Source: a virus (lineage: Duplodnaviria > Heunggongvirae > Uroviricota > Caudoviricetes). Taken from it: a stretch of DNA of 64,000 nt. Made by a program: the position numbers and the translations under genes. The stretch's first letter is position 1; the number at the start of each line of letters is the position of its first letter. Shown piece by piece: positions 32,376-35,005 of the stretch. The stretch is taken from IMG/VR virus record IMGVR_UViG_2563366840_000011, positions 1 through 64,000 of that record; one strand, 5' to 3'. The notes beneath the pieces are model-generated. The model saw only the letters and a list, made by a program, of their open reading frames with translations, ran no database searches and was not told the origin of the DNA.

Positions 32376-33128
32376 TTATCTCGTCACCTTCCTCAATTGC
32401 GCTTCCGCGTATGCTTCTTCCTGCCAGCACTTTGTTACCAGTTTACCAATGACGTCCGCATACCCCTTATACCACTGATAATCGGTCAGGTCTGGTACCA
32501 GCTTCTGGACATGACGTCGTGCCAGCGTGGTCGGTAAACGACTAAACCGGTTTCCATTACAACGCCCACAAATCTTATATACCGGTACGCCATGAAACCG
32601 GGTTCTTTTTTCATCCAGAACAATCCCTTTACCCTTACACCCTCTGCACGCTGTGCTGGCTTCGCCCTTACCATGGCAATGCTGACATAGTTCCTTCACC
32701 CATTCTTCCTTGATTACAGATTCCCCGCGTCTGTAGTGTTTCACCACTTCGCGCAATACATTATAAAATCCCGTACCTGAACAATGCTCACAGCGAGCCT
32801 TACTTGCCGCAGACCTGGAGTAATCAGCAAAGGCAAAACTCACGAGGTAAGGAATAATCTGTAACCGGATTTCTTCACTCAATTTGTTCAATGTCGGGTT
32901 ATCCAGTGCCATCGCGTAATTTAGCAGGCCTTCAATCGCAAACTGAGGGTCCTGAACACCAACTTTTGCCAGAAATAAGGCCAACCCAAGTGGTGCTTTC
33001 GACTGCACCATCCCCTGCGCTGCCATTACATCCGTAATTGTTAAACAACCGGTGCCTGTCGCTGGAGCGTCATCGCTCAATTTTGGAGATTTTGGGGAGT
33101 AATATTTTGGTAAGGCTTCAAGGTTCAT
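32376..33128 (-). CDS. quuQ: Late gene antiterminator Q
   Basis: 250 aa from MNLEALPKYY; Cys-rich zinc-binding motifs; directly upstream of a pR'-like promoter. Confidence 0.8.
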   Translation of the reverse strand: MNLEALPKYYSPKSPKLSDDAPATGTGCLTITDVMAAQGMVQSKAPLGLALFLAKVGVQDPQFAIEGLLNYAMALDNPTLNKLSEEIRLQIIPYLVSFAFADYSRSAASKARCEHCSGTGFYNVLREVVKHYRRGESVIKEEWVKELCQHCHGKGEASTACRGCKGKGIVLDEKRTRFHGVPVYKICGRCNGNRFSRLPTTLARRHVQKLVPDLTDYQWYKGYADVIGKLVTKCWQEEAYAEAQLRKVTR

Positions 33129-33141
33129 GCTCGTTCTCCAC

Positions 33142-34191
33142 TTACGCCAGTACGCCAATTGCCAGCGCGCGATCGATAAAACGAAATATCAGCTCCAGTT
33201 GGGAGCCATACTTATCTTCAAATGCCACTGTATCCGTATGCAGCTCGTTGTGATGCTTTCTGCACAAAGGCAACACAAAGAGATCATGTGCTTTTGTTCC
33301 CATTCCGCCCTGCCCGTGACCAATCAGATGATGCGGATCGTCGGCTGGCATACCGCAGCAAGCACACGGCTGTGTCTTAACCCAACGTGTGTATTTCTCC
33401 TTAACCCAGCGGCGACGTTTAGGCAGCTTCATGAAAGATTCCGGAGACTCTGGATCAACGGTGATGCTTACCACCGTCTTTTCCTGTGGTGATTTTTGTT
33501 GCTGGTGGGCGTAAGGCAACGGTGCAAGATTTTTTGTGCGTTGTTTCAATATGCTGGTGGCGGTCTGCTCTCCCGGTACGATGTCGCTTTCGCGGTACAC
33601 CGAGCAGATTTTTTCCGCTGGTAATCCCAGCGAACGACGCGATACAGCCTCAGGTAGTGCATCCACCACCTGATTGCAGACCGCCCACCAGGATAATTCA
33701 GCCAAAGATAATTCCCGCTCCTGCGTACCGCTTATTGCGTGACGGATGACGTCAATCACCCATGCTGTCAGATTTTGTTGAGCAAGCAGCTCCAGTGATT
33801 CCGATGTCTGGTCACGCAGTTGGTTGTCGCAGTGCCAGCACAACACCATTGCGCCGGTACCATAACGGTGAATGACTGTTTCAGTGTGATGGTAATCGCC
33901 ATTAGGCCACTGGCAGGATGTAACATGACGTAATAGCCAGTCGGACAATGCGCCAACGCCGCCAGCAGCACGAATCACCCGTTCGTTACTAAAAAACGGC
34001 AGCAATGTTTTGTCTTCCGCCAGCGGCTGGCGAACGGCAGGAACGACTCCGGATGGCAGATTACGCATGCTTTTTGGTTCCGGTTCCACCAGCACTCGAG
34101 GATTATGAAATATCTGTATGGATTCACGGCCCGGCTTAAGGACCACCAGCCCAAGCTCAGGCACCAGAACAGGTCTAAGTAATACCCGCAC
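33142..34191 (-). CDS. ydfU: YdfU-like DUF968 protein with C-terminal HNH-like motif
   Basis: 349 aa from GTG at 34191 with GGAGG SD 5 nt upstream; C-terminal CxxC...HH...H HNH-like signature. Confidence 0.7.
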   Translation of the reverse strand: MRVLLRPVLVPELGLVVLKPGRESIQIFHNPRVLVEPEPKSMRNLPSGVVPAVRQPLAEDKTLLPFFSNERVIRAAGGVGALSDWLLRHVTSCQWPNGDYHHTETVIHRYGTGAMVLCWHCDNQLRDQTSESLELLAQQNLTAWVIDVIRHAISGTQERELSLAELSWWAVCNQVVDALPEAVSRRSLGLPAEKICSVYRESDIVPGEQTATSILKQRTKNLAPLPYAHQQQKSPQEKTVVSITVDPESPESFMKLPKRRRWVKEKYTRWVKTQPCACCGMPADDPHHLIGHGQGGMGTKAHDLFVLPLCRKHHNELHTDTVAFEDKYGSQLELIFRFIDRALAIGVLA

Positions 34192-34192
34192 G

Positions 34193-34471
34193 TTACCTCC
34201 AGATCCGTTGCTGGAAAGTGCGGGACGCACGTGGTGGGCGTTCGGAATAAGGCAGCCTGACAGAGATTATCCAGTGCCGATAGTCGAGACTGAGAGCTTT
34301 CTTAACCTCGAACCCGCGCCTGCGGTAAGAATGAATCAGCCATTCGGCCTGTTCTGCAGTGCATGGAGGGTGCTGGAACCATTCAGACTTGAATGCGTGA
34401 GAATACCGCCCGTGCGTGCAGGCAAGAACGGGCGAATTATCAGAATTGTAATATTTTGCGTTGCGTGCCAT
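34193..34471 (-). CDS. Hypothetical 92-aa protein, translationally coupled to ydfU
   Basis: ORF whose stop lies within the ydfU SD/start region; no confident family. Confidence 0.4.
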   Translation of the reverse strand: MARNAKYYNSDNSPVLACTHGRYSHAFKSEWFQHPPCTAEQAEWLIHSYRRRGFEVKKALSLDYRHWIISVRLPYSERPPRASRTFQQRIWR

Positions 34472-34537
34472 CGGTTTTCTCCGGTGGCACGGTGTTACTC
34501 AGCGGGAGTTCAGCCCCGCGCAAGATTGTAGATGAGT

Positions 34538-34789
34538 TTATTCTTCTGAAAAAGCAGAAAAGCCAGCTTTTATTCCGATCTCTTTCAATGCCTGTAATGA
34601 AGTGACAAACTCACCTTCGCGCAAGATAAATCCGTCCGTGACCCGAGCATCCACAAAATTAATTAACGCAGCCCCATTCTTTCGCAAACACATAATGCGG
34701 TAATGACTAACAAGATTTCCATTTTCAACGCACACAGCATAGAGGCCATCTTCACAAAAAATTTTACGCAGTTCTTCGATGTTCATCAT
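34538..34789 (-). CDS. rem: Rem-like small prophage protein (83 aa)
   Basis: 83-aa ORF in the Qin rem position between ydfU and hokD. Confidence 0.55.
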   Translation of the reverse strand: MMNIEELRKIFCEDGLYAVCVENGNLVSHYRIMCLRKNGAALINFVDARVTDGFILREGEFVTSLQALKEIGIKAGFSAFSEE

Positions 34790-35005
34790 CAGAATCCTTC
34801 CGGATAATTAGCTCTCCCCTTTAAGGGACCATCCCTCTTATCCCTGCGCGCTACTTAAGTATTTTTGATTCTATTCCGGCACCGTCCAGAACTTCAAACG
34901 CGTTGAAAATAAAAACAAAAACCCGCCGAAGCGGGTTAAGTGCGGGTGCGTTGAGGATGCCTGCCACATCAGAGGTGGCGAGGGATTTCTCCCCCGCCGG
35001 GTCTC

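Follow-up and report, generated by a model that had tools for sequence, protein, structure and literature searches.

YdfU of the Qin prophage, a predicted HNH nuclease of the nin region, and the small conserved gene that precedes it

We looked at ydfU and at the 92-codon open reading frame (ORF92) that precedes it in a phage DNA stretch of 64,000 nucleotides, which we call the window. The explanation that we favour, and that we hold to be probable as a whole, is that YdfU is a recombination nuclease of the nin region and that the small gene is real but a generic neighbour in the operon. In the early-right ('nin') operon of the lambdoid prophage Qin, both genes would occupy the distal end, before the late antiterminator gene Q. 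The HNH prediction for YdfU and its neighbourhood of Q, RusA and antirepressor genes were already in print (Jablonska et al. 2017, PMC5714182); in that study YdfU and YbcO were put in group 7 of the His-Me fingers and a role in recombination was proposed. The finding is largely ordinary and leaves current views unchanged.

The ydfU gene and its HNH domain

The window corresponds to the Qin cryptic prophage of E. coli, with the gene order cspB-cspF-ydfT(Q)-ydfU-[92 aa]-rem-hokD-relEB. Positions 33000-34900 found a match in 4920 of 5426 complete E. coli genomes and differ from MG1655 at 2 positions, the 92-codon ORF being nucleotide-identical. The ydfU region matched most E. coli genomes, often with several copies in each. 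On the minus strand, ydfU lies between rem upstream (34538-34789) and ydfT (32376-33128), which codes for a Q-type late antiterminator and follows ydfU immediately, so the Q-proximal location given in the earlier note was correct. Rem was shown experimentally to be an antirepressor of DicA (PMC10448788). Past hokD, consensus scans gave a hairpin resembling an intrinsic terminator with a T-run behind it (34920-34937, minus strand) and, after this hairpin, a promoter-like site (34868-34897); taken together, these two scan matches may show where a rem-ORF92-ydfU-ydfT transcription unit has its 5' limit. As no LexA box was found near the rem promoter region, we rejected a control of rem and its operon by LexA.

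The ydfU coding sequence (33142-34191, minus strand) starts at a GTG, ends with a stop codon at 33144-33142 and codes for a DUF968 family protein of 349 residues. The open frame itself extends over 33142-34230 and would give 362 residues from the first possible start, whereas RefSeq and PGAP use the GTG at 34191. An alignment speaks for this shorter version: 38 homologues, with identities as low as 26%, begin to align at its residue 1 (M-R/K-x-L-L). No Shine-Dalgarno sequence was found for the GTG at 34230.

The identity of the gene as ydfU/DUF968 and an HNH-like signature at its C-terminus (CxxC...HH...H) had both been proposed from the sequence, and profile searches upheld them. YdfU matched Pfam DUF968 (PF06147) with an E-value of 1.4e-76 and 256.8 bits against a cut-off of 27.8, the match running over residues 160-346 and the entire 171-position model, and it matched PHROG 96 'HNH endonuclease' with an E-value of 2.8e-171. 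The match to HNHc_6 (PF16784) had an E-value of 6e-6 and 26.3 bits against a cut-off of 26.6, and a precomputed match to this family is carried by many close homologues. RecA_dep_nuc (PF16786) was matched with an E-value of 0.004 and 17.8 bits, below its cut-off of 26.9. The AlphaFold model (pLDDT 85.7) contains the beta-beta-alpha-metal fold of the His-Me finger/HNH superfamily. Among the 38 homologues, the HH pair 287/288, which holds the putative catalytic His where strand 1 ends, was present in 34-35, D303 in all and H314 and H318 in 34, and the putative zinc ligands were C276 (38/38), C279 (29/38), C310 (31/38) and a His or Cys at position 313 (29/38). All these active-site and zinc residues, including H313, are found in the copy of the window.

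The HNH domain occupies approximately residues 255-349 (33145-33429). It is preceded by a middle region (residues 156-254, 33430-33726) made of helices with an 'LS..EL.WWA' motif and then a variable linker, modelled with low confidence at residues 228-239; the initial part of the Pfam DUF968 model falls in this region. The N-terminal domain (residues 1-155, 33727-34191) exists elsewhere as a separate protein family, PHROG 11007. We found no solved-structure relative of this domain and no recognisable relative of the 254-residue N-terminal part, and a profile search of PDB sequences with YdfU gave no match. Comparison by hhalign with a YbcN and a DUF1367 protein gave nothing, and an Orf-like or DUF1367-like N-domain was rejected. 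Long 'fusion' proteins with tail-fibre, capsid or portal domains were also discarded as domain partners of the YdfU N-terminus, as we judged them to be chimeras of assembly or prophage decay.

Inside the N-terminal domain, residues 93-125 (CQ...HH...LCWHCDN; 33817-33915) form a predicted zinc knuckle with a beta-hairpin and a helix (strands 105-110 and 113-118, helix 119-125). Its four-ligand pattern, C93, Cys or His at 101, C118 and His or Cys at 121, is conserved in 37-38 of the 38 homologues. When the N- and C-terminal parts of YdfU were aligned by hhalign, their Cys/His motifs came in register, with a non-significant E-value of 0.034 and a probability <1%. An internal duplication of the HNH domain was consequently not accepted and is kept as a suggestion only, in which the zinc knuckle could be a second, degenerate His-Me finger for recognition of DNA structure.

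From its fold and position, YdfU would most likely be a DNA endonuclease of the His-Me finger (HNH) type that contains zinc. The catalytic domain appears most similar to those of phage P1 Ref and YbcO, and YdfU has two accessory regions N-terminal to it, namely the domain of 155 residues, in which a zinc knuckle of its own is predicted, and the helical region. Biochemical studies of YdfU, YbcO or DUF968 were not found in the literature searched.

The 92-codon gene and its junction with ydfU

The upstream ORF (34193-34471, minus strand) is WP_012304870 in PGAP annotations, where it is labelled hypothetical, and belongs to PHROG 1212. Upstream of its conserved core there is a single start codon, an ATG, with a GGAG Shine-Dalgarno sequence 7 nt before it (34479-34482), in a context identical in 81 loci. 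Alignments show this conserved core at residues 27-92 (34196-34393); it folds as beta-alpha-beta-beta in the AlphaFold model (pLDDT >90 for residues 31-70) and ends with a basic tail that is likewise conserved, PRxSRTFQQRIW(R/G). In this core, pN was 0.027 and pS 0.218, giving a dN/dS of ~0.12. The first 26 residues (34394-34471) form an extension specific to the Escherichia, YdfU-linked subfamily, with predicted disorder and a variability that includes in-frame indels; for dN/dS in this extension the loci are near-identical, with 0 synonymous and a few non-synonymous changes.

The core covers the whole PHROG 1212 profile (residues 27-92 on positions 1-66 of 66, E-value 1.7e-35), and searches with the ORF returned 129 close and 500 profile matches. 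Homologues occur in 59 phage records from at least 10 genera, and those of Salmonella, Klebsiella, Cronobacter, Yersinia, Edwardsiella, Erwinia and Hafnia phages share 37-50% identity with it. NinE and NinF are the small genes that precede ybcO and ninG in DLP12 and lambda, and the 92-codon ORF matched the Pfam family of neither. It had no Pfam match at E <= 0.1 and no NCBIfam family. The low dN/dS of the core, its predicted fold, the homologues and the ribosome-binding site indicate that the 92-codon ORF is a real protein-coding gene, coding for a small alpha/beta protein of a nin-region family of Enterobacterales phages; it is conserved and has its own ribosome-binding site, two properties whose absence was to refute the earlier note.

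This gene, at MG1655 1644306-1644584 (minus strand), seems to be absent from the curated K-12 MG1655 annotation, between ydfU (b1560) and rem (b1561), and merits a name. We found no mention of it, of WP_012304870 or of its MG1655 coordinates in the literature searched, and the interval between rem and ydfU has otherwise been taken as non-coding, the place of a very strong terminator that depends on Rho.

At the junction, the minus strand reads ...ATC TGG AGG TAA C GTG, with the TAA of the 92-codon ORF at 34195-34193, one spacer base, and the GTG of ydfU at 34191-34189. The GGAGG of ydfU (34196-34200), 4 nt before the GTG, lies within the two final sense codons of the small gene, for Trp and Arg, and abuts its stop. 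The GTG start with a GGAGG at the end of the upstream ORF, from which the earlier note had deduced coupled expression, was confirmed at these positions, and a downstream Shine-Dalgarno sequence inside the upstream gene with stop and start 1 nt apart is the kind of geometry that gives translational coupling. The ORF is conserved together with ydfU, followed by it at the same 1-nt spacer in 78 of 78 Escherichia-type viral loci, and the junction is kept in these 78 loci. Analogous junctions were observed before NinG and YbcO-type genes, so that the placement of the Shine-Dalgarno sequence in the last codons is maintained with three nuclease families. The last two codons and stop of the small gene (TGG-AGG-TAA or TGG-GGG-TGA) would thus act as the ribosome-binding region of the next nuclease gene, and therefore ribosomes that end the small gene would re-initiate on the nuclease gene. 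That one small-protein family carries the ribosome-binding site of three nuclease families is an example of mosaic joint placement in phage operons.

Neighbourhoods of YdfU homologues and alternative explanations

We surveyed 80 diverse loci of YdfU homologues for a member of the small family within 3 kb. It was absent at 63 of the 80. Where the small family was lacking, the genes upstream of the YdfU homologue (antirepressors, RusA) overlapped ydfU equally tightly, with a 4-nt overlap in 29 of 29 cases for Rha/ANT. Because other upstream genes abut or overlap ydfU as tightly, the coupling arrangement, judged from these sequences, is ordinary phage operon packing. The constant neighbour of YdfU was the Q antiterminator, found downstream at most of the 80 loci and belonging to at least four Q families. 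RusA immediately preceded the YdfU gene at 14 loci and immediately followed it at 3, and Escherichia-type loci had the order ORF92-YdfU-(RusA)-Q.

Seen from the small protein, an identical core preceded NinG in some phages and YbcO-type nucleases in others, and in N15-like phages the small family lay beside either a DEDD exonuclease or a gene resembling RdgC. The gene of a His-Me finger nuclease (YdfU, NinG or YbcO) nevertheless followed 36 of 39 distinct small-protein variants at 1-2 nt, an association more regular than chance synteny, which leaves room for a functional link. The loci sampled are highly redundant prophages, so that the counts overstate independence. With the NinG and YbcO swaps and the 63 of 80 YdfU loci that lack the small gene, the pair does not show the co-occurrence and co-variation of a toxin-antitoxin or immunity pair, and the 'two-gene unit' of the earlier note, taken as a dedicated system, was not supported. 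We think it probable, as part of our best explanation taken as a whole, that ORF92 and YdfU are neighbours in a packed operon and do not form a cognate pair. The small protein may be an optional accessory factor.

The interval between rem and ydfU could have been read as an untranslated leader with a Rho-dependent (nin-type) terminator and the 92-codon ORF as no gene. This is in accordance with the 346-nt gap of the curated MG1655 record (NC_000913.3), where nothing is annotated between ydfU and rem, with the very strong Rho-dependent terminator reported upstream of ydfU in vivo (PMC9160355), with an excess of C over G on the mRNA strand over 34549-34316, and with the lack of a Pfam or NCBIfam family. 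We consider it very unlikely in view of the low pN/pS of the core, protein-level homologues in phages of seven named genera, in-frame indels, a confident AlphaFold core, a good Shine-Dalgarno sequence 7 nt from the sole available start codon and the PHROG 1212 match. Moreover, gene and terminator are compatible, since a rut site may lie inside a gene that is translated and take effect under poor translation. Another reading accepts the gene and makes its product a dedicated partner of the nuclease, an inhibitor of antitoxin or immunity type, a chaperone or a specificity subunit, kept at a fixed ratio by coupling in a true two-gene system. The constant 1-nt spacer with the Shine-Dalgarno sequence inside the small gene, the nuclease following 36 of 39 variants, the basic or aromatic C-terminal tail that resembles a binding peptide, the extension restricted to the YdfU-linked subfamily and a homologue labelled 'toxin to Rem' in one phage record all speak for it. 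We nevertheless judge it unlikely: the small protein does not co-vary with the nuclease, because an identical core precedes NinG or a YbcO-type gene, most of the 80 YdfU loci do without it, and its N15-like neighbours are not HNH genes. Lambda NinG and DLP12 YbcO, moreover, function in operons with other small genes upstream. PADLOC gave no match for YdfU, the 92-aa protein or Rem, and their membership in a defence system was rejected on this basis; no toxin-antitoxin families were found for the three in Pfam, and none above threshold in NCBIfam, where the only match was that of Rem to SocB_toxin (14.9 bits, the cut-off being 210). We also dismissed the label 'toxin to Rem', which has no support in the literature searched, in which Rem is the DicA antirepressor. 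A looser link would make the PHROG 1212 protein a portable accessory module for nin-region nucleases, giving an initiation region and modulating or targeting the following His-Me nuclease (YdfU, NinG/Rap or YbcO) via its basic tail; together with the zinc-knuckle suggestion above, we regard this as tentative and rather doubtful. The tail may, for example, tether the nuclease to DNA or to a factor of the host, for instance RecA or SSB, or hold it inactive until needed, and the dependence may be one-way, the small protein needing the nuclease and the nucleases not needing the small protein.

For YdfU itself, our best explanation is that it would cut single-stranded or branched recombination or replication intermediates during lytic growth, a substrate suggested by fold and position. 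In the uninduced K-12 prophage the unit would be silent, and termination by Rho upstream of ydfU would be at least part of the cause. YdfU could alternatively be a selfish HNH endonuclease of the homing type, or a nuclease that serves exclusion or defence and attacks competing phage or host DNA, as free-standing phage HNH genes often are homing endonucleases or defence effectors. Its structural neighbours include Cap5 and McrA, its presence among lambdoid phages is patchy and mosaic, and Rho-silenced prophage genes were described as toxic (PMC9160355). We find this improbable, given a position fixed directly upstream of Q at nearly all of the 80 loci, frequent adjacency to RusA, DUF968 domains reported as fused to Erf, Rad52 and RusA (PMC4118853, PMC5714182), the lack of a PADLOC match, and a nearest fold relative, Ref, that is a recombination-enhancing nuclease. 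An HNH protein in a cos-type lambdoid prophage might also recall HK97 gp74 and be a cofactor of terminase for cos cleavage and packaging. In HK97, however, the packaging HNH gene sits beside the terminase genes, at the end of the genome, while ydfU is in the early operon, upstream of Q and the lysis cassette, which makes this role extremely unlikely.

Comparison with known systems

YdfU of the K-12 Qin prophage (b1560; DUF968, PF06147) is the same gene, with no substantive difference. The closest fold relative is phage P1 Ref, a RecA-dependent HNH nuclease (PDB 3PLW). This likeness is structural only: YdfU stays under the threshold of the Ref family (RecA_dep_nuc, 17.8 against 26.9 bits), and Ref is small, its N-terminus being basic and disordered, whereas YdfU carries ~250 additional folded residues. 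YbcO of prophage DLP12/82 (DUF1364, PF07102; PDB 3G27) is a nuclease domain alone, of ~96 residues, and the YdfU family profile gave no sequence-level match to it. For DUF968 proteins of Gram-positive phages, an Orf(NinB)-HNH fusion was modelled (Curtis et al. 2014, PMC4118853). They share with YdfU the Pfam family name and a C-terminal zinc-finger HNH, but the Orf-like (RAGNYA) domain of the lambda Orf/NinB-YbcN family, N-terminal to the HNH in that model, was not found in YdfU.

The best structural match of the 92-aa protein in the viral structure library was 'orf QD1' of N15, also of PHROG 1212, from which the Escherichia subfamily is distinguished by its 26 additional disordered N-terminal residues.

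Lambda NinG/Rap (PF05766), a branch-specific endonuclease, and the RusA resolvase occupy the operon position of YdfU, just before Q, and in this slot do the kind of cutting that is proposed for YdfU. NinG is also a His-Me finger protein, and the same small-protein family precedes it in Gifsy-2-type phages. Both NinG/Rap and RusA belong to families other than that of YdfU, and YdfU is not simply a resolvase substitute, because it often co-occurs with RusA. Identifying the substrate of YdfU, YbcO and DUF968 proteins would fill a gap among the recombination functions of the lambdoid nin region, beside Orf, Rap and RusA. NinG/Rap and RusA are the functional model for the probable job of YdfU.

Locus and reading frames

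The region lies within the Qin cryptic prophage of E. coli. When the 1.9 kb from 33000 to 34900 were used as a query, matches were found in 4920 of 5426 complete E. coli genomes, with 100% identity in one strain and 99.9% in K-12 derivatives. Compared with MG1655, this segment contained two differences only, T vs A at 33566 in ydfU and T vs C at 34545 in rem, so that the sequence would derive from a very close K-12 relative and not MG1655 itself. The annotated gene order on the minus strand is relB, relE, hokD, rem, a hypothetical gene of 92 codons, ydfU and ydfT (the Q antiterminator gene), followed by cspF and cspB. In several strains (genome matches H2-H5), the matched region is interrupted by IS insertions (ISEc52, IS600, IS1414), which suggests that the module is not required by the prophage.

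ORF scanning placed the ydfU frame at 33142-34230 on the minus strand. The RefSeq start, the GTG at 34191, gives a protein of 349 aa; alignments of 38 homologues, the most distant at 26% identity, begin at that residue and support this choice. The 92-codon ORF was found at 34193-34471 on the same strand. At the junction the minus strand reads ...ATC TGG AGG TAA C GTG: the GGAGG of ydfU (34200-34196) is followed by the stop codon of the upstream ORF (34195-34193), one spacer base and the GTG at 34191. An earlier note, made from the sequence alone, had described this GTG start and a GGAGG overlapping the stop of a 92-aa ORF, and it read the sequence accurately. The 92-aa ORF has a ribosome-binding site of its own, a GGAG located 7 nt before its ATG, and no other start codon precedes the conserved core.

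YdfU domains and neighbours

Pfam DUF968 matched residues 160-346 of YdfU (33142-34191, minus strand) with an E-value of 1.4e-76, HNHc_6 fell just under its cut-off (26.3 vs 26.6 bits) and RecA_dep_nuc was sub-threshold as well (E 0.004). PHROG 96 ('HNH endonuclease') covers the full length of the protein, and PHROG 11007 residues 2-134 alone. An exhaustive HMMER search returned 2885 relatives, from which 38 full-length homologues sharing 26-90% identity were aligned. The AlphaFold model built from this alignment had a mean pLDDT of 85.7, and its structural neighbours include Cap5, McrA and the GVE2 HNH. All the conserved catalytic and zinc residues are present in this copy (C276, C279, H287, H288, D303, C310, H313, H314 and H318). 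Given the DUF968 match, PHROG 96 and these residues, the HNH reading of ydfU in the earlier note is correct, though already in print.

DUF968 proteins from Gram-positive phages have been described as Orf-like domains fused to an HNH (Curtis et al. 2014, PMC4118853). An Orf-like N-terminal domain was looked for in YdfU and remained unconfirmed, as hhalign detected none against one YbcN and one DUF1367 protein and a search of PDB sequences gave no match. Alignment columns and predicted secondary structure indicated a putative zinc site at residues 93-125 (33817-33915, minus strand). Within the N-terminal 155 residues, a four-ligand pattern (C93, C/H 101, C118, H/C 121) is present in 37-38 of the 38 sequences and located on a predicted beta-hairpin and helix, a pattern typical of structural zinc sites. 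It was aligned with the C-terminal HNH motif by hhalign without significance (E 0.034, probability <1%), and may represent a second treble-clef or a degenerate His-Me finger.

Several unusual homologues were encountered among the database proteins. P0398, P0453 and P0386 are full length and keep the N-terminal domain with loss of the HH pair and HNH zinc ligands; from their sequences, they are probably catalytically dead variants. In P0332, P0376, P0377, P0343, P0360 and P0312, the YdfU N-terminus is joined to tail-fibre, tail-tip, capsid or portal domains, and these are most likely assembly chimeras or prophage-decay scars instead of real architectures. Fusions of YdfU to an N-terminal extension (P0122, 438 aa) or to the Q antiterminator (P0123/P0124/P0126, 607 aa), all at 99-100% identity, are probably frameshifts or gene-calling artefacts; the precomputed domain list also gives a Pfam family, PF27659, at the N-terminus.

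We looked at 80 loci encoding YdfU homologues (47-99% identity) from many Enterobacterales genera. The upstream gene encodes an Rha/ANT antirepressor (29 loci), RusA (14), a KilA-N protein (12), the small protein (7) or a methylase. Antirepressors (Rha/ANT or KilA-N) are thus often directly upstream in other genera, with an overlap that is usually of 4 nt, and is so for all 29 Rha/ANT genes. Downstream, a Q antiterminator (four Pfam families) is almost always found, or RusA and then Q. Judged by this neighbour pattern, what is conserved for YdfU is a position, namely the end of the early operon, ahead of Q. Close abutment of ydfU with any upstream gene is general.

The small gene and the nuclease-family genes that follow it

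Judged by its sequence, the 92-aa ORF is a genuine gene. E. coli and Shigella contain many close homologues (129 matches), and the family profile gathers 500 proteins, including forms of 66-69 aa in Salmonella, Citrobacter, Cronobacter, Kluyvera and Enterobacter. By tblastn, the family was found in 59 phage records, among them Gifsy-2, mEp237, PY54, phiES15 and functional Escherichia phages. PHROG 1212 matched residues 27-92 (E 1.7e-35). This core has a predicted beta-alpha-beta-beta fold (pLDDT >90), with a pN of 0.027 vs a pS of 0.218 among loci of at least 89% protein identity. The N-terminal extension of 26 residues, restricted to the Escherichia subfamily, is variable with in-frame indels and predicted to be disordered. 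PGAP annotates the ORF as a hypothetical protein in other strains. In curated MG1655 (NC_000913.3), no gene is annotated in the 346 nt that separate ydfU (b1560) from rem (b1561), and the ORF is nucleotide-identical there (1644306-1644584, minus strand), so that a gene is probably missing from the reference annotation. In ON470583 and ON470612 (locus L086, 3501-3779), a homologue is labelled 'toxin to Rem', a label for which no support was found in the literature searched.

The earlier note had asked whether the small ORF is conserved with ydfU. In about 190 viral loci, a nuclease gene of one of three kinds lies 1-2 nt after the small gene: YdfU (78 loci, always with the same 1-nt spacer), NinG (a 2-nt spacer in 92 loci, and a 93-nt gap in one further locus) or a YbcO-type nuclease (13 loci, 2-nt spacer). 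NinG is likewise a His-Me finger protein, and the NinG and YbcO identities were confirmed by Pfam. Overall, 36 of 39 distinct small-protein variants precede one of these nucleases. The type of junction is invariable: the Shine-Dalgarno sequence of the next gene is made up of the last codons, Trp-Gly or Trp-Arg, together with the stop (TGGGGGTGA or TGGAGGTAA). At 34196-34200 and at the equivalent junctions of loci L002-L197, this is TGG-AGG-TAA or TGG-GGG-TGA, whichever nuclease follows. The 3' end of the small gene would therefore supply the ribosome-binding site for its neighbour. One identical core has NinG downstream at some loci but a YbcO-type gene elsewhere, and the same was seen repeatedly for cores 97-98% identical; hence the small protein does not co-vary with the downstream nuclease. 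In N15-like phages, it lies next to a DEDD Rv2179c-like exonuclease or an RdgC-like gene. In the linear-plasmid prophages PY54 (L084) and YDC107_1 (L280, N15-like), it is 'orf QD1', located after Q and a Lar-like gene and adjoining one of these two genes with no HNH beside it.

Expression context and interpretation

Upstream of the small gene, rem (34538-34789, minus strand) encodes an experimentally shown antirepressor of DicA (PMC10448788). A sigma-70-like promoter match was found just upstream of rem (34868-34897, minus strand), with no LexA box near it, and a strong intrinsic-terminator-like hairpin, AACCCGC-TTCG-GCGGGTT with a T-run, follows hokD (34920-34937, minus strand). In vivo measurements have placed a very strong Rho-dependent terminator upstream of ydfU (PMC9160355). 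Over 34549-34316, a stretch that begins shortly before the small gene and takes in its 5' half, the mRNA strand contains 28-36% C vs 19-23% G, which fits a nin-type terminator silencing the unit in the cryptic prophage. Defence-system models gave no match to YdfU, the 92-aa ORF or Rem.

With the fold, residues and synteny of YdfU established, we infer as reasonably likely that it serves the lambdoid nin-region recombination/replication-repair module as a zinc-containing His-Me finger DNA endonuclease, and it would cut single-stranded or branched intermediates. That YdfU is a homing or defence nuclease is distinctly unlikely, and that it is a packaging HNH extremely improbable, because its position is fixed, Q-proximal and RusA-adjacent. 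As for the small protein, its regular association with nucleases keeps an optional accessory role alive, but a dedicated inhibitor or partner of the nuclease is unlikely, and the two-gene unit of the earlier note is unsupported as stated: the core does not co-vary with the nuclease and the gene is missing from most YdfU loci, with a family member within 3 kb in only 17 of 80 and adjacent in 9. A non-coding ORF is very improbable, being contradicted by selection, homologues and fold; the small gene encodes a genuine protein of the nin region.

The assignment of YdfU to the His-Me finger/HNH nucleases has been published before. Jablonska et al. 2017 (PMC5714182) placed DUF968 and DUF1364 (YdfU, YbcO) in His-Me finger group 7, remarked that RusA, Q and antirepressors are neighbours and suggested a role in recombination. 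Against this background only three items are modestly new: the 92-aa gene that the curated K-12 annotation lacks, the zinc site predicted in the N-domain of YdfU, and the portable Shine-Dalgarno-bearing junction common to three nuclease families.
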